Shown: positions 461 to 21,094, counted from the first letter of the stretch. The stretch: DNA of 64,000 bases from Acidobacteriota bacterium (GCA_031393555.1 JANMVW010000171.1:3334-67333); one strand, 5' to 3'. The notes: generated from the sequence alone by a model not told the origin. A program made the numbers and translations.

Positions 461-3400
461 TCAGAACAGCGTTCCGATAGCGAAGATCAGTTCGCTGGGG
501 CTTTCGTCCGGCCGCCGATCGAGCTTCCACCCGTACTCGAGGCGGATCGGTCCGATCGGGGTGTCGAGGCGGAGTCCGACGCCGGCGTCGAGGCGCAGAT
601 CGGTCGGGTCGAAATCGTCGATCGCTGGGTAGACGTTTCCAGCGTCGACGAACACCTCGCCCCGCAAGGCGCTCCAGATGGGGAAGTGCCACTCTTGGTT
701 GAGTACGAGGATCGCTTCGCCTCCCGCATTGAAGCCCAGGACATCGAGACCTCCGACCGAGTCCGTTGCGAAACCACGAAGCGTGTTGAAGCCGCCGGCG
801 AAATAGCGCTCGGACAGCGGAACGATCTCGGTGCCGCCGAAGGGCTGCTCGGCGCCCACGCGAAGGAAGCTCGCGAACCGGTGGCCACGTCCGACCGTGA
901 CGGTCCACGATCCGCGAAGGAACAACTGGAGGAAGGAGGCTTGTGAGCCCAGGGGCTTCGCAAAGGCGGTGCCCTCGATCGAGGCATAGCCTCCGCGGGT
1001 GGGGAGGAAAGCGTCGTCGCGCGTATCCCGGACAAGGCCCAGACCGGCATCAGCCAGCCGCAGGTTGGACAGTTTGTCCTTGAAAATCGTCTCGAGCTTC
1101 GCCTGGTCGTCCGTGATGTCGAAAATCCGTACCTCTTGAATGCTGTAGCGGAGAAAGCGGATCCACCGCGGCTTCGGCCTCTGCTCGAACCGGAACGACA
1201 ACGTGTCTTCCTTCTTCGAGAAACCCACTTCGACCGATTTCTCAAACAGCAACGAACCGAGGGCGTCGATGGTGTTCCCGAACACGCGCCGTCGCCGCAG
1301 GGTCAGGAGCTCCCGATTCTCTTTTTGGCTGACGCGGCCCTGCAATGTGATCGCCACGTTGCGCCCGGCAAGGTTCGAGTAGCCGAGCAGGAAGCTCGCC
1401 CCGGGCCCGTTCGTCGAGTCATAGCCCACGCCCAAGCCGAGCGCCAACGGCGGCGCCTCCTCGACCTTGACCGTCACACGCTGGGCGCCGGCGACGTCCT
1501 CCCCGAGGGGCATGCTGGTCATCTTCACGTTTGAAAACAGGCCGGTCCGGTAGAGGCGTTGCTGACTATCGAGAAACGATTGATTCGATACCGGCCCGCC
1601 GACGCCGAACGTCAGCGCGCGGGCGATCGTCCTGTTTCTGGTGACCCGGTTGCCCTCGATCGTAATCTCGCCAACCGTCTTGCGATCGCCCGGGGCGATG
1701 TCGAACACGATATCCGCCGTCGCCGCCGCGAGCTCGACCCGCGATTCGACGGTCGTGTCGGGATAGCCGAGCGCGTCGAAGCGCTCTTTGAGCAACTGCT
1801 CCGCCTCGGCGAGACGCCGGGGCGAAAACGTCTCTCCCGGTCGAAGCGGTGTCGCATCGCGCAGCTGCTCTTCCAGGACGGCGTCACCTCCCGCGTAGCC
1901 GACCGTCCCGACGGTGAAGCGCGCTCCTTCGTCGATGGCGACCTCGACCTCGGCACTCTCGCCGTTAGCGGCCAAAGTGATCTGCGGTAGTCCGATACGG
2001 ACGCGCGTGAACCCCTCCTCGCGATAAAGCGCCCTGACCGCGGCGAGGTCCTCCGCGAGCAGGGCCGGACGCAAGAGCCGCTTGCGCAACCCTTGGCTCT
2101 TCGTTGAGGTCATCTGTTTGTCGATCCGAGCCCTCGGAATCGAACCACCACCCACGAAGCGCATGGCGCGCAGTCGCACCGGCTTCCCACGATCCACCAG
2201 CATTCGAACCTTGCGACCGGAGGGCCCGTCGGAAGCATGCCAGGTGACATCGGCGGCGTAGTAGCCGCGCTCTTGCAGGTCACCGATCAGCGCGCGCCCC
2301 GCCTCGTCCCAGAACTCCGGCGTATAGGGGGTCTCCCGCCAGTAGGCTTTGAGCGACTTCAACGCTCCGCGCTTTCCCTTGCCGTCGCTCATGACGAGCT
2401 CGAAGGTGATCTGCGGTCCCGGCGCGATGCGGTAGATGATCCGCCGCGTCTCCTTAGGCCCCTCTTCGCGCACCGCTTCGGCGCGGACGGTCGCCTGGAT
2501 GAAACCGTCCTTGAGGAGCGCGGATCGAATGTGCTCTCCCCCCTGGAGCATGCGCCCGCGGTCGAACGCTTCGCCGGTTTTGATCTTCGCTCGCTTGACA
2601 AGATCGGCCCGCGGGGTGCCGGTGTCGTCGAGCACGTCGACCGAAACGACGACGCCCGACGCCTCGGCCTTTCCGCTCCCGAGGCGGGCGGGTGACCCAC
2701 CGAACTGGCGAGCGTATTGCAGTTCGCCGCCGATGCCGGACTCCGAGTCACTCTCCGCGACCAGGCGGATGTGCCGCGTGGTGTCCCAAGATACCGAGTA
2801 CGTCTGTTTTTGAGCGGTCCCGATATCCTGCGAGAAAGCGATCTTCACCGTGTCGCTCACCTGCTTACCGACCGTGACACGCGCGGTCGGGTCGGACTCT
2901 CCCTTCAGCAACTGCGGGGTGATCGCCAACTGATCGATCCCGAGGGAGCTCTGGATCTGCTTCCCGAAGGTCGAGCTCAAGAGTCCCGCGAAATAGTATG
3001 CGGCCATGTCTCCCGGGAGGGCGGAAGCCGAGGCCGATCCGCTCAACGTGTCGAGCGTCCTTCCGGTCACGAGCAACGAGATGATGTCTTGCGAGTCCAG
3101 CGGCGGGGTCGAGGTCAGTTCGTAGTCGAACTTGTCCAGCGTGCCTTCGATGCGAAGACTGATGTCGTACTCGGCGACGCGTGTCCGACCGCGGAATTCG
3201 AGGTAAGGGTTGATACGTTTCGGATCCGTGAGGTCGACGGTTCCGTACTCGATGCGGTAATCCACGTCCCGATAGCGGACGGTGCCGCCTGGGAACAGGG
3301 AAAAATGTCCCGTCACTTCCGGGCGGGCCAATTCCCCCCCGAGATGAACCTGGCCCTCCGCCTCGACGGTGGCCACGTCGTTGCGGAGCCAGACGTTTCC

Positions 3401-6400
3401 AGGCGCCACGATGTCGACGTCGAGGAAGAGATTGCGCGGGAAGGGCGACTCGGCTGCGGCGTCGAATTCGCGGTGAGCGCCGCCGAACAGACCGACGTCG
3501 AAGTCCTTGGCGTACAGCCCGCGCACCACATCGATGCGGCCGGAGATCGTCGCGCGTTTTGGCGTGCCGTCGATCGCGATGCGGCCCTCGTAGATTCCCT
3601 GGAATCCTTCCGGAAATTTCGCGCGGACGTTCGCGCCGGTAAATTCGGCTCGCACCGACGTGGGAACGACCCCGGTGAACGCGACGCGTCCCGTCGCCGA
3701 AATCTCACCCCCGCCCTGGAACGCGTGGAACGACGTGAGCGTGAGCGCTTGCCCGGCAAAGACCGCCTCCGCGTCGATCGACTCCAGCGTCTGCGGATAG
3801 CCGATGAGACGCATTCGGCCGTCGCGCAAGGTGACCTTGCCTTCGAGATTGGGGCTTTCGAGCGTTCCGGCGAGGGTCGCGTCGATTTTGACCGGACCGG
3901 CGCCGCGGATTTCCGACCACAGAGACGACGCGACCGCCAGGTCGAGCGTCCCCCGGAGGTACCCCGCGACCTCTCCCCCGTCGAGGGATCCGTGCGCCGC
4001 GAGTTCGACCTCCGTGCCGTCACCGGAAAACCGCGACGGGCCGAGCACGAAGCGCCCGCTGTCGAGACGCAGGGGAAACGGCTCGAGGGTGCGAACGACG
4101 CGCGGCCCGAGCCGGACCACGGCTTCGTCGAAGACGCCGTTGATCGCCATCGCGCGCGGTTCCGTCAGATCGCCTTCCGTGTGGACCTGCCCCTTCAACC
4201 GCAGGTCGAGACTCTCCCCGAAGACCCCCCCAGCTCCGACGACCAGATCCTCGAAATACAAAACGGCCGACAGCGGAAGTTTCGGCGCGAAGCCCAGGAA
4301 CCCCTCGAAGGTCCAGGCGGAAGGCTGCGAAGCGACCGCGAACTCGCATCCGTTCGGCGCGATGGTCGCCTCGCCCGTCAGGTTCCCGAGCTGGATCTCA
4401 CGCAAACCGCCCCGTCCGGTGTCCAGGAGGAGGTCGTTCGCGGTGAGCCCGAGTCGTCCGGTGGGACCTTCTTTCGTGATCGTCAGCGAACCCATGGCGC
4501 GGACCGTCCCTTTCGCGCTGAGGCCCGCGTCCGCCAACGTCCGGTTGCGCGCCAGGTCGAGGGTCGCCGAGTGAATCTCCACGCCGACTTCGTTCGTCGC
4601 GAACGCGTAGGTCACGCGCCCGCGGGCCTCGAGTCCATCACTGCGTGCGACGAGCCCCTCGAAAACGGCCTGATCCCCTTCGATGAGCACGGGCGCATCC
4701 ACGGTGTCGACGATCTCATGACCGACGATGACGTTTTTGGCCGCGAGGCTCCCGACCGCCGCGAACACTCCGTGCTCGCGGGATCCGCGGAGCGTCAGAT
4801 CGATCCGGCCATCGACGGAACCGGCAACGCCTGCGCTCGCGAGCAACTTCGCGATGCCGACGCCTCGGGCGGCGAGGTCCACGGCGTCGAGCGCCCCGGT
4901 CTTGGCGTTGAAACGCGCGCTCCCCGCCAGGAACTGCCCGGCCCCGGACAGATCGACGCGCCGGATTTCGACGGAGGATTGTGAGACCGCCAGATCCAGT
5001 ATCGCCGAGGCGAACGGCTCAGCAGCGTAAGAGCCCTCCGCGAGGTCGAGTTCTAGATCGAAGGTCGTGGCCCTCCCGGCGATTCGCAACGACGCGCCGA
5101 GGGTCCCGGCCCCTTGAAGCGGCAGCACGGCAAATCGATTCCGCTCGACCCCGAACGCATCGAGGATCGTCAACGCCGCGGCTTGGGTCGCCCGGGCGTC
5201 GCGCGTTGTCCCTTCGAGCGTGAGATGCCTTTTTGCCGACGCCGCGGAGAGATCCGATTCGAAGCCGAAGCGTAGCGACGCCTTCGCGATCGAGAGACTG
5301 TCGGCCTGAACCCGCACGCGACCGGAATCAAACGTCAGGCGTCCGCGGCCCCCCGCGGGAAGGCGCGCGCTGGTGCCCGCGGAAGCAGGCACGGCGTCAA
5401 AAGTCCCGCCGCCGTTCCACGTCGCGATCCTTCCGGGGTCGCCGGCGATCTTGAACGTCACATCGGCCGTGCTCGCGAGCGGAAGTTCCGGCCCGGCGAG
5501 GGCGATCAGGCGGGAGAAATCGGCGCCCTTCCCGGTCAGGTCCGTACGGAGCTCGAGCGGCGTGCCGAAGAGGAGACTCACCGTTCCCGTGAAACTCCCG
5601 TTGTAAGCGCGCGCGTCGATATTTTCGACGTCGAGATGCCCCGGGCGGATCGTGAGGTCGCAGCGTGCGACCTCCGTGGCGATCGGCCCGACGCGAAATC
5701 CCGTCGTCGTCGCCTGCATCGCGACCCGAATCGGCACGCCGCCGGTGTACACGATCTGGACCGGTCCCTCGGCCCGGCCCGAAAGTCCGGCATGACCCGC
5801 GAGAAACGGGCTCAACGTCCCGAGGTCCGCATCCAGACGACCCTGCGCCGTGAAGGACACGCCGACGCCCCACACGACGTTTCCCGAAAGCTCCCCACGC
5901 GCGCCTGATCCCTCCCCGGTCGCGGAAAATATTTCGATGCGGCCGCCGCCGAGCCTCAATCCCGAGCGCACCGTCGCCGGCCAGGGACGGTTGAAGATCG
6001 GCGCTTCGAGCGTGGCGTGCGTGCTCATCTCTCCGATGAGCAGCTGGCGCGAGGTCGACCAGTCGCCGCGGAAATCCAGCGAGCGCGTCTGCACGCGCAC
6101 GTGCTGGCGCCCGTCGAGATACTCGGCGGTCGCGTCGTCGACGATGAGCCGATCGATCTGGACGGCGACGGGCCCGCTGGCCTTCTTGTCCTTCGGCTTG
6201 AAGGCGTCGATCCACTCACGGCTGAGCGAGAACGTCGCCTTGCGCGCGACGAGTTCGGTGATGTGAACCTGTCCGCCGGCGATCCCGCTCAGCCCGGACC
6301 AGGCGAGTTGGACGCTCCCCTCCCCGATCGTGGCGGTGAGCGGCGGGGCTCCCTCGGCCGGGATCGAAATCGCGACGTCACCCACCGTCGCGGACAGCCC

Positions 6401-6580
6401 GGTCCAGTTGACGTCGATCCGCCCGATCCGCACCGTGGCCCCGAGCGCCTCCGCCAGCCCGGTCTCGAGACGGCGCTGCAGCCAGGAGGTGGATCGCGCG
6501 TCGGGCGGCGTTTGCGCGTGCGTTCCGGCCGTCGCCACAGCGCAGGCAAACACTGCGGCCAGCACTCGGCCGCCCCTCAC
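461..6580 (-). CDS. Fused TamB-like (AsmA/DUF490 family) translocation-assembly protein + POTRA/Omp85 (TamA/BamA-like) outer-membrane barrel, about 2039 aa
   Basis: This is a single open frame. The N-terminus is VRGGRVLAAVFACAVATAGTHAQ, which looks like a signal anchor. The TamB-type C-terminus ...KIAFSQDIGTAQKQTYSVSWDTTRHIRLVAESDSESGIGGELQYARQF is followed by the linker GGSPARLGSGKAEASG. After that come POTRA-like repeats and an Omp85 barrel (GGFNTLRGF..., ...PIRLEYGW..., terminal ...IFAIGTLF). The start is placed at GTG 6580, which overlaps the rlmI stop as GTGA. GTG 6613 and GTG 6565 are alternative starts. Confidence 0.8.
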   Translation of the reverse strand: MRGGRVLAAVFACAVATAGTHAQTPPDARSTSWLQRRLETGLAEALGATVRIGRIDVNWTGLSATVGDVAISIPAEGAPPLTATIGEGSVQLAWSGLSGIAGGQVHITELVARKATFSLSREWIDAFKPKDKKASGPVAVQIDRLIVDDATAEYLDGRQHVRVQTRSLDFRGDWSTSRQLLIGEMSTHATLEAPIFNRPWPATVRSGLRLGGGRIEIFSATGEGSGARGELSGNVVWGVGVSFTAQGRLDADLGTLSPFLAGHAGLSGRAEGPVQIVYTGGVPIRVAMQATTTGFRVGPIATEVARCDLTIRPGHLDVENIDARAYNGSFTGTVSLLFGTPLELRTDLTGKGADFSRLIALAGPELPLASTADVTFKIAGDPGRIATWNGGGTFDAVPASAGTSARLPAGGRGRLTFDSGRVRVQADSLSIAKASLRFGFESDLSAASAKRHLTLEGTTRDARATQAAALTILDAFGVERNRFAVLPLQGAGTLGASLRIAGRATTFDLELDLAEGSYAAEPFASAILDLAVSQSSVEIRRVDLSGAGQFLAGSARFNAKTGALDAVDLAARGVGIAKLLASAGVAGSVDGRIDLTLRGSREHGVFAAVGSLAAKNVIVGHEIVDTVDAPVLIEGDQAVFEGLVARSDGLEARGRVTYAFATNEVGVEIHSATLDLARNRTLADAGLSAKGTVRAMGSLTITKEGPTGRLGLTANDLLLDTGRGGLREIQLGNLTGEATIAPNGCEFAVASQPSAWTFEGFLGFAPKLPLSAVLYFEDLVVGAGGVFGESLDLRLKGQVHTEGDLTEPRAMAINGVFDEAVVRLGPRVVRTLEPFPLRLDSGRFVLGPSRFSGDGTEVELAAHGSLDGGEVAGYLRGTLDLAVASSLWSEIRGAGPVKIDATLAGTLESPNLEGKVTLRDGRMRLIGYPQTLESIDAEAVFAGQALTLTSFHAFQGGGEISATGRVAFTGVVPTSVRAEFTGANVRAKFPEGFQGIYEGRIAIDGTPKRATISGRIDVVRGLYAKDFDVGLFGGAHREFDAAAESPFPRNLFLDVDIVAPGNVWLRNDVATVEAEGQVHLGGELARPEVTGHFSLFPGGTVRYRDVDYRIEYGTVDLTDPKRINPYLEFRGRTRVAEYDISLRIEGTLDKFDYELTSTPPLDSQDIISLLVTGRTLDTLSGSASASALPGDMAAYYFAGLLSSTFGKQIQSSLGIDQLAITPQLLKGESDPTARVTVGKQVSDTVKIAFSQDIGTAQKQTYSVSWDTTRHIRLVAESDSESGIGGELQYARQFGGSPARLGSGKAEASGVVVSVDVLDDTGTPRADLVKRAKIKTGEAFDRGRMLQGGEHIRSALLKDGFIQATVRAEAVREEGPKETRRIIYRIAPGPQITFELVMSDGKGKRGALKSLKAYWRETPYTPEFWDEAGRALIGDLQERGYYAADVTWHASDGPSGRKVRMLVDRGKPVRLRAMRFVGGGSIPRARIDKQMTSTKSQGLRKRLLRPALLAEDLAAVRALYREEGFTRVRIGLPQITLAANGESAEVEVAIDEGARFTVGTVGYAGGDAVLEEQLRDATPLRPGETFSPRRLAEAEQLLKERFDALGYPDTTVESRVELAAATADIVFDIAPGDRKTVGEITIEGNRVTRNRTIARALTFGVGGPVSNQSFLDSQQRLYRTGLFSNVKMTSMPLGEDVAGAQRVTVKVEEAPPLALGLGVGYDSTNGPGASFLLGYSNLAGRNVAITLQGRVSQKENRELLTLRRRRVFGNTIDALGSLLFEKSVEVGFSKKEDTLSFRFEQRPKPRWIRFLRYSIQEVRIFDITDDQAKLETIFKDKLSNLRLADAGLGLVRDTRDDAFLPTRGGYASIEGTAFAKPLGSQASFLQLFLRGSWTVTVGRGHRFASFLRVGAEQPFGGTEIVPLSERYFAGGFNTLRGFATDSVGGLDVLGFNAGGEAILVLNQEWHFPIWSALRGEVFVDAGNVYPAIDDFDPTDLRLDAGVGLRLDTPIGPIRLEYGWKLDRRPDESPSELIFAIGTLF

Positions 6581-7767
6581 GGCGCCCCTGACGCGTCCCG
6601 CAACACGAAGCACTTCAAATAGCGCCCCTCGGGAAACCCCAGCCGCACGGGATGGTCGGCGGCTTGTCCTCGCCGTTCGAGCACCACCGCGTCCCGGCCG
6701 GCGTCGGCCGCGGCCTCGCGTACGAGCCCTTCGAAGGACACTTCGTCGAGATTGAACGAGCAGGACGACGTGAGGAGGACCCCGCCCGGGGCGAGAAGTC
6801 GGATCGCCCGCAGGTTGATCTCTTTGTACCCGCGTCGGGCGGCCGGGACGTCGCCACGGCTCTTTGCGAACGCGGGAGGATCCAGCATGACGAGATCGAA
6901 GCGTTCCCCCCGCCGATCCCGCTCGCGGAGATCCTCGAAAGCGTTCGCTTCGACGAACGTCAGGTTCGTCGCTCCGTTCAACTCCGCATTCGCTCTTCCG
7001 CGAGCGAGAGCCTCCGAGGAGGCGTCGACGACCACAACCTCCGTGGCGTGACGTGCCGCGTGGAGCGCAAACGATGCGTGATACGAAAACGCATCGAGGA
7101 CGCGGCCTCGGGCGTGGGCGCGACACGCCAAGCGGTTTTCTCTCTGATCGAGAAAAGCCCCCGTCTTCTGGCCGCGCCAGGGGTCAGCGGCGTACCGAAC
7201 ACCGCCCTCGTCGACCACGATCTCCTCGGGGGTGGTTCCCGAGAGTTGCTTCACCTCCCGCGCCAACCCTTCGAGCTTTCGCACGGAGGGGTCGTTCCTG
7301 GCGAGGACGGAATCGATGGGAAGGCGCTCGCGCAACGCGGCGACGACGTGATCGACGACGCGCTCCGTGCCCGCCGTCAACGCTTGAATGACGAGGTGGG
7401 TTCCGTACAGATCGGCGACGAGCCCGGGCACGCCGTCGCCCTCGCCGAACAGGAGACGCTTCGCAGGCCATCGGCCGATTTCGGACCCGCGACGCGCGAG
7501 GGCCGAATCGACGCGGGCCGCCCAAAACGCCGCATCGGGGACGACGTCCTCCAGGGACACCATCCGGAGCGCGATTTTCGAGCGGGAGGACCAAAACGCA
7601 ACACCCAAGACCATGCCGGCGTTGTCTCGCACGCGGACGAGATCGCCATGCTCCGCGCCGCTCGACGAGGAAACGTCGTCGGCGAAGACCCAAGGGTGTC
7701 GACTGGCGATCCGCCGGTTGGCGCGCAGCCGGACGGAAATGTCGGGAAGCCGCCGGGAGGGTTCCAT
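6577..7767 (-). CDS. rlmI: Class I SAM-dependent 23S rRNA (cytosine-C5) methyltransferase, RlmI family (PUA + MTase)
   Basis: Motifs align with E. coli RlmI along the whole length: RHPWVFADDV, QKTGAFLDQRENR, VLDAFSYHASFALHAA, RFDLVMLDPPAFAKS, RGYKEINLRAIRLLAPGGVLLTSSCS and GQAADHPV...PEGRYLKCFVLR. Confidence 0.85.
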   Translation of the reverse strand: MEPSRRLPDISVRLRANRRIASRHPWVFADDVSSSSGAEHGDLVRVRDNAGMVLGVAFWSSRSKIALRMVSLEDVVPDAAFWAARVDSALARRGSEIGRWPAKRLLFGEGDGVPGLVADLYGTHLVIQALTAGTERVVDHVVAALRERLPIDSVLARNDPSVRKLEGLAREVKQLSGTTPEEIVVDEGGVRYAADPWRGQKTGAFLDQRENRLACRAHARGRVLDAFSYHASFALHAARHATEVVVVDASSEALARGRANAELNGATNLTFVEANAFEDLRERDRRGERFDLVMLDPPAFAKSRGDVPAARRGYKEINLRAIRLLAPGGVLLTSSCSFNLDEVSFEGLVREAAADAGRDAVVLERRGQAADHPVRLGFPEGRYLKCFVLRDASGAP

Positions 7768-7798: not shown

Positions 7799-8599
7799 CT
7801 ACTCTTCCGAGTCGTCGCCGTCCACGACGAGCGGATCGTCGTCGAGAACCTCGTCCTCCACCTCCGGCTCCGACTCCTCGTCGATGGGGGGCACATCCTC
7901 GGGCTCGTCCACAGGCTCTTCGTCATCGCCGACGTGGAACGGGAACTGGGGCAACAGCCCCTTCTCCTCGAGTTCCTGGCAAGGGAGACAGTGCCGAGCC
8001 CAGGGTTGAACCTCGAGGCGTTTGGGGTTGATATCCTCACCGCATTGCTGGCAGTAACCGTACTCGCCGCGGTCGATCCGGTTCAGTGCCTCTTCGACGA
8101 GCAGCAACTGCTTGCGATCCATCTCGGTCAAGGAGAGCAGGAATTCCCGAGCGTAGGAGTTCACGGCGTAGTCGACGTAGTCCTCGGTCCCGTTGTCGAG
8201 CTCAGCCTGGGAGTCTCCCTTGCTGATCGCGTAGGCGCGCATCAGATCTTGGCGCTTGTTCAGGAGCAGCTCACGAACGTGCGCGCGCTCTTTGCGGCGC
8301 GCGAGGATCGAAGCGGGCTTGGGCACCCGTCGCACCGGCGCCTTCGGTTTTGCGGCGGCGGGCGGGGTCTTCGGCGCGGCTTTCACGATGCGCGTTTCCT
8401 TCACCGGCTTGCCTGTTCCCTTGGGGCCCGCCTTCACGGTCGGCTTGGCGACGGCGGTTTTCTTGGGGGCGGGCTTCGCGGCAGCCGGCTTCTTCTTCGC
8501 GGCGACGGCCTTCGCGGCGACCGCCTTCGCCGGCTTCTTCGCCGCCGGTTTCGCGGTCTTCTTGGCCGGAGGCTTGTTCTTCGAGGACTTCGCTTTCAT
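7799..8599 (-). CDS. dksA: DksA/TraR-family C4 zinc-finger RNA polymerase-binding regulator with Lys/Ala/Pro-rich N-terminal tail and acidic C-terminal tail
   Basis: A DksA coiled-coil tip motif DxxDxA is present (EDYVDYA). The zinc finger is CQQC-N17-CLPC. The N-terminus is MKAKSSKNKPPAKKTAKPAAKKPAKAVAAK... and the C-terminus is ...DDEEPVDEPEDVPPIDEESEPEVEDEVLDDD. The RBS GAGGG lies 6 nt upstream of ATG 8599. Confidence 0.75.
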   Translation of the reverse strand: MKAKSSKNKPPAKKTAKPAAKKPAKAVAAKAVAAKKKPAAAKPAPKKTAVAKPTVKAGPKGTGKPVKETRIVKAAPKTPPAAAKPKAPVRRVPKPASILARRKERAHVRELLLNKRQDLMRAYAISKGDSQAELDNGTEDYVDYAVNSYAREFLLSLTEMDRKQLLLVEEALNRIDRGEYGYCQQCGEDINPKRLEVQPWARHCLPCQELEEKGLLPQFPFHVGDDEEPVDEPEDVPPIDEESEPEVEDEVLDDDPLVVDGDDSEE

Positions 8600-8648
8600 C
8601 GGGAACCCTCGAGCACGCGGGCGCGATTCACGCTCGCGAAAGCGCGGC

Positions 8649-8677
8649 ACTATACCGTCCTGCCCATTTAGCGTCAA
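8649..8677 (-). promoter_or_regulatory. Near-consensus sigma-70-type promoter for the dksA-like gene
   Basis: The minus strand reads TTGACG (8677-8672), a 17-nt spacer, then TATAGT (8654-8649). This sits about 45 nt upstream of ATG 8599. Confidence 0.5.
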
Positions 8678-17456: not shown

Positions 17457-17893
17457 CGGCGCGTCGGGGGGAGCAGGGCTCGCGACAGTCGGGCCTGCAA
17501 ACGCATCATCGTGCCATCGTCCACCTCGTGATCATACCCGAGCAGGTGCAAGTAACCGTGGATCACCAAAACGCGAAGTTCCCGGGCGAGCGAGTGCCCG
17601 AACGCTTCCGCTTGGCGGGCCGCCTGCGCCACGGAGATGACGATTTCGCCGAGGGGTCGCGACCCGTCGGGAAGCTCTTCGGCCCCGGACGCGAACGAGA
17701 GCACGTCCGTCGTGACGTCCTTGCCTCGAAAATCGCGGTTCAAGCGCCTCAGGGTGGCGTCGCCGGCGAGCACGATCGAAACTCCGGTGGCCTTCGTCGG
17801 CGGGGCTTTTCGGGCGACGCGCCTGAGGAACGCGGCGAGGGACGCGGGAGGCACAGGCCGGGCCCGCTGCTTCGCGACGATCGCAACGTCCAT
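17453..17893 (-). CDS. ybeY: rRNA maturation endoribonuclease YbeY
   Basis: The metal-binding motif HGYLHLLGYDH is present. The size is 146 aa and the position is syntenic. Confidence 0.9.
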   Translation of the reverse strand: MDVAIVAKQRARPVPPASLAAFLRRVARKAPPTKATGVSIVLAGDATLRRLNRDFRGKDVTTDVLSFASGAEELPDGSRPLGEIVISVAQAARQAEAFGHSLARELRVLVIHGYLHLLGYDHEVDDGTMMRLQARLSRALLPPTRR

Positions 17894-17894
17894 T

Positions 17895-20095
<2,201 letters not shown>

Positions 20096-20099
<4 letters not shown>

Positions 20100-21094
20100 A
20101 TCCGTTCCTCGGACACGCCGTTCTGCCGCGCCTCTTTCAGGCGCGCAGCGCGTTCGTCGTAGGCGACGACGATCCGCTGCACGAGCGGATGCCGGACGAC
20201 GTCCGTCTCGTCAAAGTGCACGATTTCGATCCCTGGGATTCCGGAGACGACCTCTTGCGCTTCCACGAGCCCGGACGTTCTCTGAACGGGGAGATCGATC
20301 TGGGTGACGTCGCCGGTGACGGCCGCCTTCGAGTCGAGGCCGATGCGCGTCAGGAACATTTTCATCTGCTCGGGGGTCGTGTTTTGCGCCTCGTCCAGAA
20401 TGATGAAGGCGTCGTTGAGAGTCCGGCCGCGCATGAAGGCCAAGGGCGCCACTTCGATGGTGCCTCGCTCGACGAGCTGCTCGATCCGCTCGGGCTCGAG
20501 CATGTCGTGGAGCGCGTCGTAGAGCGGGCGAAGGTAGGGATCGACTTTGGCCGCGATGTCGCCCGGAAGGAAACCCAGCTTTTCCCCCGCCTCAACCGCC
20601 GGGCGGCACAAGAGAATGCGCTGGATGCGCTTCTCGTTGAGGAGCGAGATCGCCATCGCGACGGCGAGGTAGGTTTTTCCCGTTCCGGCGGGTCCGACGC
20701 CAAACACCAAATCGTTCTCGCGCATCGCGTCGATGTAGCGTCGCTGGTTCGGAGATTTGGCGACCACCGCTTTTCGAGCCGACGGGTTCAAGCGGGAGTC
20801 GAGGAAATGCTCCGCGAGGGTCGAAGCCTCCTCGCGCGCCATGATACCCACCGCGGTTTTGACGTCGTCTCGTCGGAGTGCGACTCCGCGGGCCTGCAAC
20901 GACGCCAGCTGGACGAGAAGATCGGCGACGCGTTCCTCGCGACCCTCTCCGCCCTCCCCGTCCCCTTGAATCGTGACGTCGCCTCCCCGCGCGCAGACCC
21001 TGACGTCGAACCGGTCCTCGATGAGACGGAGGTTTTCGTCGAGCGGCCCCGCGAGGGTCGCGATCGTCTTGCTCTCCAGGTTGATCGTCTTCAT
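20096..21094 (-). CDS. phoH: PhoH-family ATPase
   Basis: The Walker A motif is GPAGTGKTYLAVA, and IILDEAQNTTPEQMKMFLTRIG is also present. The start is ATG 21094 (MKTINLESKT...), since the ORF-track extension would run into aspS. Confidence 0.9.

Follow-up and report, generated by a model that had tools for sequence, protein, structure and literature searches.

Introduction

TamB-type proteins are now seen as bridges of ancient origin over which phospholipids reach the outer membrane of bacteria, and the docking of TamB on an Omp85 barrel has only recently been viewed by cryo-electron microscopy (cryo-EM). In E. coli's translocation and assembly module (TAM), TamB and its Omp85 partner TamA are two polypeptides. 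A stretch of 64,000 nucleotides from an Acidobacteriota bacterium (GCA_031393555.1 JANMVW010000171.1:3334-67333), hereafter called the window, carries a gene whose product appears to hold both partners in one chain. The questions raised by this locus are whether a full-length TamB and a complete Omp85 protein are joined in a natural protein, to which kind of Omp85 the TamB is joined, and how such a chain might be arranged between the two membranes.

Results

A Single Reading Frame Encodes TamB and Omp85

Translation of the minus strand between window positions 461 and 6580 gave 2,039 codons followed by a stop codon, with no internal stop. The strand had been left unnamed in the preliminary description of the gene. 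The proposed start is sound because the orthologous proteins open with MRGG or MRRG at this very position. The features located along this frame are collected in Table 1. That description had proposed one uninterrupted frame without a stop at the junction, an N-terminal TamB-like part of about 1,290 amino acids (aa) ending in DUF490, a 16-aa linker, and POTRA domains followed by a complete Omp85 barrel with an aromatic end. This anatomy was borne out by the translation and by the domain and structure analyses given below, and the coordinates proposed for the linker were exact.

Table 1. Features of the fused gene and of the gene upstream of it, in window coordinates.
Feature	Residues	Window position	Strand	Basis or remark
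Fused TamB–Omp85 coding sequence	2,039 aa	461..6580	minus	Stop codon at 461-463
Putative N-terminal export signal, MRGGRVLAAVFACAVATAGTHA, then Q	1-22	6515..6580	minus	Hydrophobicity and A-x-A rule
TamB-homologous region	28-1293	2702..6499	minus	N-terminal helix, then long run of β-strands
DUF490/TamB C-terminal domain (PF04357)	954-1293	2702..3721	minus	E = 8.8e-43, 147 bits (cutoff 22.4)
Three predicted α-helices at the groove end	1163-1213	2942..3094	minus	AlphaFold2; third helix of low confidence
Six predicted terminal β-strands	1217-1293	2702..2932	minus	AlphaFold2; β-signal-like end ...ELQYARQF
Linker, GGSPARLGSGKAEASG	1294-1309 (16 aa)	2654..2701	minus	G-G hinge, then variable flexible tether
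Five predicted POTRA domains	1310-1708	1457..2653	minus	AlphaFold2; five β-α-α-β-β units
Predicted 16-strand Omp85 barrel	1712-2039	464..1447	minus	AlphaFold2 strands at aa 1712-2035; LRGF loop-6 motif; end ...IFAIGTLF
PUA and S-adenosylmethionine-dependent methyltransferase (RlmI-like)		6577..7767	minus	Pfam PF17785, PF10672; upstream of the fusion, co-directional

The N-Terminal Half Is a Full-Length TamB Homologue

Pfam covers just the last 340 residues of the TamB half, together with two sub-threshold matches, so that a custom hidden Markov model (HMM) was built for the whole protein; the weak matches, to YhdP and DUF748, lay at aa 34–170 and fell below their cutoffs. The HMM was derived from 16 stand-alone TamB-type proteins of 1,280–1,553 aa that carry PF04357 and an AsmA, YhdP or DUF748 N-terminal domain, several of which had already been named TamB by their sources. 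It matched the window protein as one domain, with aa 28–1293 corresponding to model positions 36–1315 of 1,316 (E = 2e-158). When the alignment of the fused family was compared with that of the stand-alone TamBs by hhalign, a probability of 100% was obtained over 1,259 columns. The TamB half is therefore complete from end to end. The proteobacterial TamB equivalog of NCBIfam (NF047952) gave 40.7 bits against a cutoff of 825.

The structure of aa 1–960 was predicted using AlphaFold2 (AF2) with a predicted local distance difference test score (pLDDT) of 85. In this model, a helix at aa 33–46 was followed by near-unbroken strands of 10–16 residues, and the N-terminal signal showed a pLDDT of about 46 with a low-confidence helix at aa 4–20. 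The run of predicted strands is consistent with the repeating β-groove (taco) fold of TamB. A Foldseek search of the N-terminal model against the PDB gave only low TM-scores, with ApoB100, LPD-3 and LptD among the matches; LPD-3, a bridge-like lipid-transfer protein, was found at E = 4e-6 and ranked below ApoB100. These structural matches are compatible with a β-groove and are not decisive, and it was the HMM comparison that settled the homology.

The C-terminal part of the TamB half was examined in a second AF2 model covering aa 900–2039 (overall pLDDT 79). In the numbering of this model, three helices were placed at the end of the groove (264–273, 277–282 and 286–314), with a pLDDT below 50 at 280–306, followed by six strands at 318–323, 334–341, 346–353, 360–367, 372–379 and 383–394. 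TamB of E. coli has three conserved helices, the third of which is mobile, and cryo-EM located its six strands in the membrane, where the last, β-signal-like strand pairs with β1 of TamA (PMC13119328). An α-helical segment followed by six β-strands was also reported for Borrelia TamB, whose C-terminal strand was modeled at β1 of the barrel (PMC13382580). The order of helices and six strands in our predicted model reproduces this published anatomy of both TamBs. The free C-terminus typical of the TamB family is absent from the window protein; the chain runs through the linker into the first POTRA domain (POTRA1).

The C-Terminal Half Is a BamA-Like Omp85 Protein

In the predicted model, the Omp85 half is BamA-like and consists of five POTRA domains and a 16-strand barrel. 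The POTRA region gave three Pfam matches (E = 1e-30), and the barrel was matched by the Pfam Omp85 family PF01103 at aa 1736–2039 (E = 2.4e-42). The BamA equivalog model TIGR03303 was matched at aa 1413–2039 with 302.4 bits, which exceeds its cutoff of 297.15 by a narrow margin. The TamA model NF047950 gave 135 bits against a cutoff of 625, and the five POTRA domains also differ from the three of TamA. Foldseek aligned the Omp85 half with full-length BamA (9hg5_A) over approximately 800 columns (E = 4e-45). Its highest TM-scores were obtained for the substrate-engaged BamA chains 8bnz_A (0.60) and 9cmw_A (0.55), and we regard these scores as too weak to argue for a hybrid barrel in an open state. 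Two features of BamA itself, an N-terminal signal peptide of its own and the status of a stand-alone protein, are absent from this half.

A Conserved Hinge and a Variable Tether Join the Two Halves

The junction was aligned from segments rather than from full-length fused proteins. In this alignment, the stand-alone TamBs stop at the column of F1293 (...YxKRF, corresponding to ...QYARQF here), and the fused proteins continue beyond it. Among 94 fused proteins, the terminal aromatic residue is F in 75, the next residue is G in 87, and a second G follows in 71. After this F-G-G motif come 11–28 residues of varying sequence, among which G, A, P and R are abundant. The linker of the window protein showed a pLDDT below 50 in the AF2 model, and POTRA1 comes directly after it with no hydrophobic signal segment, in agreement with the earlier remark that the Omp85 half has no signal peptide of its own. 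A 1,376-aa protein (P0040) considered as a split relative was rejected, as it holds the start of POTRA1 and is a truncated fusion.

Fused and Split Forms Occur in Acidobacteriota

Proteins combining PF04357, POTRA and PF01103 were grouped at 90% identity into more than 100 clusters; they measure approximately 2,000–2,470 aa and show identities from 86% down to 23%. Examples with a named source are from Polarisedimenticolaceae, Aminicenantes, Blastocatellales and Luteitalea. A contig of the Logan assembly of run SRR23617244, which may not be independent of the source of the window, encodes the identical protein. The junction region (aa 1160–1480) was searched using phmmer against 1.84 billion representatives (50% identity), which gave 1,105 matches at E ≤ 1e-3, including 392 at E ≤ 1e-10 and 62 at E ≤ 1e-30. 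Of the best 150 representatives, nearly all gave an alignment that spans the junction, and most were proteins of 2,000–2,350 aa.

A scan of GTDB species genomes yielded 590 relatives, and the best 80 loci, nearly all from metagenome-assembled genomes (MAGs) of Acidobacteriota, were examined frame by frame. DUF490, POTRA and barrel lay in a single frame at 31 of these loci, which came from Polarisedimenticolia, Terriglobia, Candidatus Solibacter, Bryobacteraceae and some Vicinamibacterales; some of them sit on contigs of 3.5–4.3 Mb. At 41 loci (among L029, L034–L036 and L042–L079), tamB was immediately followed by a separate Omp85 gene, and at eight the Omp85 gene stood alone. In the split loci, tamB stops after ...RHVF or ...RRRY, and the Omp85 gene often begins at an overlapping ATG. 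Its product opens with a classical signal peptide, such as MRTLPLLVVVAALLAVGADARA followed by QP, and has a length of 900–985 aa with about seven POTRA domains (e.g., L043:11242-14196, L052:11215-14037 and L057:11161-13872). These partners match the second BamA, sometimes having seven POTRA domains, whose gene was reported to share an operon with that of TamB in Acidobacteria (Heinz et al. 2015, PMC4494059).

The two arrangements are a true fused-versus-split (Rosetta stone) pair, and far more than a lost stop codon separates one form from the other. The preliminary description had valued the fusion as a Rosetta stone for the interface between the TamB C-terminus and POTRA. The logic of comparing fused with split genes holds, given the 41 split loci, but the fusion says little about a DUF490–POTRA interface because the join is a flexible, variable linker and published models put the TamB strand at β1 of the barrel. 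A rough neighbor-joining tree of the barrels suggests two fused clades, of which clade A includes the window protein and clade B contains the proteins of Solibacter, Bryobacteraceae and Vicinamibacterales.

Several further observations were made on these loci. Fusion was accompanied by the loss of approximately two N-terminal POTRA domains, as the fused proteins have five and the split partners about seven. Two fused paralogues were found in one genome in two cases, namely L014 and L017 (MAG_302_bin-08) and L022 and L046 (contig CAWIIB010000009.1). The members of each pair fall in different subclades of clade A, and the fused gene has therefore been duplicated and has diverged. At L027:10160-13463, DUF490 and POTRA share one frame and the barrel lies in another; either this copy of the fusion is a frameshifted pseudogene, or the MAG contains a sequencing error here. 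The acidobacterial locus L030:9461-17449 shows the reversed order, with the Omp85 gene first and a DUF490 match about 4 kb downstream, in agreement with the BamA–TamB order given by Heinz et al. (2015, PMC4494059) for Acidobacteria. Five close relatives of the acidobacterial tamB–Omp85 loci (L034, L035, L060, L078 and L080) came from MAGs labeled Deltaproteobacteria, Clostridia, Chondromyces, Nitrospiraceae or Omnitrophota, and these labels point to mis-binning, mislabeling or horizontal transfer.

The N-Terminal Signal Differs between the Fused Clades

The N-termini were compared by a simple rule in which the length of the uncharged stretch, its best 19-residue Kyte–Doolittle score and an A-x-A-like site at its end were evaluated. 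The window protein has an uncharged stretch of 15 aa and a score of 1.32, followed by T-H-A before Q. In the close fused clade (n = 31), the median stretch was 17 aa and the median score 1.53; all but two of its 31 proteins (29) had an A-x-A-like site. For the distant fused proteins (n = 52), the corresponding medians were 19 aa and 2.73, and nine had such a site; for the stand-alone TamBs (n = 16), they were 21.5 aa and 2.6, with a site in four. A long signal anchor is thus kept only in the second, distant fused clade, and the inner-membrane signal anchor that characterizes the TamB family was not detected in the window protein by this rule. A lipoprotein signal (VFAC, aa 10–13) was considered and rejected, since the Cys is missing in many orthologues.

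The N-terminus RVLAAVFACAVATAGTHA had earlier been described as resembling a signal anchor, and the protein as a single chain anchored in both membranes. Neither proposal fits the window protein well. Its segment is short and weakly hydrophobic and is followed by T-H-A before Q, a pattern typical of Sec signal peptides that are cleaved, and it probably belongs to this kind and not to the signal anchors. With the same trend in its clade, it is doubtful that the chain is fixed in both membranes here; that arrangement would suit the distant clade B. We put the odds at roughly even that the window protein, once mature, lacks an inner-membrane anchor and that its own barrel alone holds it in place. 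The wider proposal, that the bridge of clade A exchanged its anchor for a cleavable signal peptide and is rooted only through its own barrel while the chain of clade B sits in both membranes, is put forward tentatively, as we consider it somewhat less probable than its opposite.

Discussion

A Possible One-Chain Bridge and Its Alternatives

The reading that we consider fairly likely is that a TamB-type groove spanning the periplasm has been joined by a short tether to its own BamA-like Omp85, giving a bridge machine made of one chain. By analogy with the work on E. coli and Borrelia, the chain would be exported by Sec via its N-terminal signal, and its C-terminal barrel would be folded into the outer membrane by the β-barrel assembly machinery (BAM) of the cell. 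The six amphipathic TamB strands may then insert beside β1, so that strands and barrel together make up a hybrid barrel like that of TamAB in E. coli. At the F-G-G hinge the chain would turn round towards the periplasm, and from there the 16-residue tether would lead it to POTRA1. In this arrangement, the hydrophobic groove might serve as a bridge between the two membranes that phospholipids, and perhaps nascent outer-membrane proteins as well, could cross. The fusion takes the place of the separate tamB and Omp85 pair of other Acidobacteriota, and in clade A the inner-membrane anchor seems to have given way to a cleavable signal peptide.

Some points weigh against such a machine. The fused family is known from sequences and predicted models, and lipid transport by the fused protein is assumed from the E. 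coli work. The contact of the TamB strands with β1 and the reach of the tether to POTRA1 are predicted, and the putative cleavage of the signal peptide was called by the simple rule given above. Furthermore, the Omp85 half lies above the BamA cutoff and below that of the TamA model, and no other Omp85 was found within the 64-kb window, so that this half might be the main BamA of the cell.

The last points lead to the alternative that survives best, in which the Omp85 half is the principal, essential BamA fused to TamB, a covalent form of the arrangement known from Borrelia (PMC5582053, PMC13382580). The scores for TIGR03303 and the TamA model, the five POTRA domains as in canonical BamA, and the Foldseek alignment to full-length BamA all agree with this possibility. 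Acidobacteria, however, carry a canonical BamA besides the TamB-linked copy (Heinz et al. 2015, PMC4494059). The presence of two fused paralogues in one genome (L014/L017 and L022/L046) is ill-suited to a single essential gene, and in the rough tree the fused barrels fall together with Omp85 genes that lie next to tamB. We therefore regard this alternative as unlikely.

Still less probable is that the chain is a polyprotein, exported whole and then cut in or near the linker to give separate TamB and Omp85 proteins. The strongly conserved F-G-G at the terminal Phe of TamB could in principle be a processing site, and a cut there would restore the free C-terminal Phe of stand-alone TamBs. No known periplasmic protease site matches it, however, and the linker varies in length and sequence outside the G-G hinge. 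Such a cut would also free an Omp85 precursor without any targeting advantage, and the loss of the N-terminal anchor makes most sense with the barrel still attached.

With type Vd autotransporters such as PlpD, the window protein shares its domain order: behind a signal peptide that is probably cleaved, one chain carries a functional domain, then POTRA and a 16-strand barrel. A TamB-like passenger exported to the cell surface via the POTRA–Omp85 part is nevertheless very improbable. The supposed passenger is homologous to TamB over its full length, with the six membrane strands present, and the barrel is of the BamA type with five POTRA domains, not of the TpsB/PlpD type with one. The split orthologues are ordinary tamB and Omp85 pairs, and the inner-membrane anchor kept in the distant fused clade is incompatible with secretion.

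The possibility that a sequencing or assembly indel merged two adjacent genes, which a one-base error could mimic in lineages having adjacent split genes with overlapping stop and start, is effectively refuted because the fusion is conserved across clusters, representatives and GTDB loci: the junction is in frame in more than 100 clusters and at the 31 GTDB loci, an identical protein occurs in the Logan assembly (with the reservation on independence given above), and a fused form lacking a signal peptide and having two POTRA domains fewer than the split form implies more than one indel.

Comparison with Known Systems

The one-chain bridge proposed here resembles TAM of E. coli in its DUF490, its groove-like strands, its three helices, its six amphipathic strands with an aromatic end, and its POTRA/16-strand partner. 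TamA of E. coli comes with a signal peptide and three POTRA domains, but the Omp85 half of the window protein has no signal peptide and five such domains; TamB of E. coli has an inner-membrane signal anchor, whereas the window protein probably has a cleavable signal peptide. It also falls short of both proteobacterial equivalog models, TamA and TamB. A closer likeness in the type of partner is found in the BAM–TAM arrangement of Borrelia burgdorferi, in which TamB works with a five-POTRA, BamA-type Omp85 and the TamB strands were modeled as completing the barrel (PMC5582053, PMC11361582, PMC13382580). In that species, the genes and proteins are separate and BamA is the sole Omp85, while in the window the two are covalently joined.

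The split pairs of Acidobacteriota belong to the same phylum, consist of homologous TamB and Omp85 proteins, and share the tamB-first order and translational coupling. They differ in that their Omp85 has a signal peptide and about seven POTRA domains, in place of which the fused form has the linker and five. No fusion was described by Heinz et al. (PMC4494059), who gave the order in Acidobacteria as BamA–TamB.

Likeness to type Vd proteins (PlpD/FplA) is limited to one chain with an N-terminal functional domain, POTRA and a 16-strand Omp85 barrel. PlpD exports a patatin passenger and has one POTRA domain and a TpsB-like barrel; the window protein gave no patatin match, and its N-terminal part is a TamB homologue, that is, a putative periplasmic bridge protein, followed by five POTRA domains. 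An Omp85 fused to a BamB-like partner provides a precedent for Omp85–partner fusion, though the partner there is not TamB, and the survey in which that fusion appears lists no DUF490–Omp85 class. In chloroplasts, the TamB homologue TIC236 is paired with the Omp85 homologue TOC75 across two membranes; the two are distinct polypeptides, with TIC236 anchored in the membrane of the inner envelope.

The preliminary description had suspected that the architecture was undescribed, and no paper on a natural TamB–Omp85 fusion was found among open-access papers and bioRxiv. What is new is the description of the architecture, as the sequences themselves are numerous in databases under the names TamB domain-containing, BamA and YaeT.

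Genomic Neighborhood

The fused gene lies among housekeeping genes. Upstream of it are glyQ, glyS, the gene of pyruvate phosphate dikinase (ppdK), a dksA-like gene and that of the RlmI-like methyltransferase; a sigma-70 gene lies downstream in convergent orientation. The order glyQ–glyS–ppdK–dksA-like–methyltransferase–fusion is kept in loci L001–L009, L016 and L027. The GTG start codon of the fusion at 6580 shares the tetranucleotide GTGA with the TGA stop of the methyltransferase (6577–6579). Because of this overlap, the two genes are probably in one operon, and the overlap suggests that an envelope gene is translationally coupled to an rRNA-modification gene. Loci L001–L008, L016 and L027 keep these two genes paired. 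The nearest genome is the Acidobacteriota MAG JAQBEH01, whose neighboring genes are 85–96% identical, and related genomes carry the label Candidatus Polarisedimenticolaceae. As with Omp85, no second TamB was found in the 64-kb window.

The dksA-like gene, at window 7799–8677 (minus), encodes a DksA/TraR zinc-finger protein with PF01258 at aa 204–239. Its N-terminus is extended by about 130 aa that are rich in Lys, Ala and Pro and histone H1-like (AKKPAKAVAAKAVAAKKKPAAAKPAPKK...), and its C-terminal tail is strongly acidic; it adjoins the fusion gene in related loci too. An open reading frame of 841 aa at window 17637–20162 (plus) gave no Pfam match at E ≤ 1e-5.

Significance of the Fusion

A widespread natural fusion provides evolutionary evidence for an obligate one-to-one pairing of TamB with Omp85, and extends this pairing to a five-POTRA, BamA-type partner outside Proteobacteria and spirochaetes. 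It also places a constraint on geometry, since the C-terminus of TamB would have to lie within a tether of approximately 11–28 residues from POTRA1. The fused protein supports current models and overturns none of them; its value is rather an enabling one, as structural and functional studies gain from it a single-chain design that nature has already made. That one clade has apparently lost the anchor would be a natural experiment on whether bridge-like lipid-transfer proteins need to be fixed in the donor membrane. If true, this loss would reverse the anchoring polarity of every characterized AsmA-like protein, and the free Chorein-like N-terminus would have to reach the inner membrane via a partner protein or an amphipathic helix.

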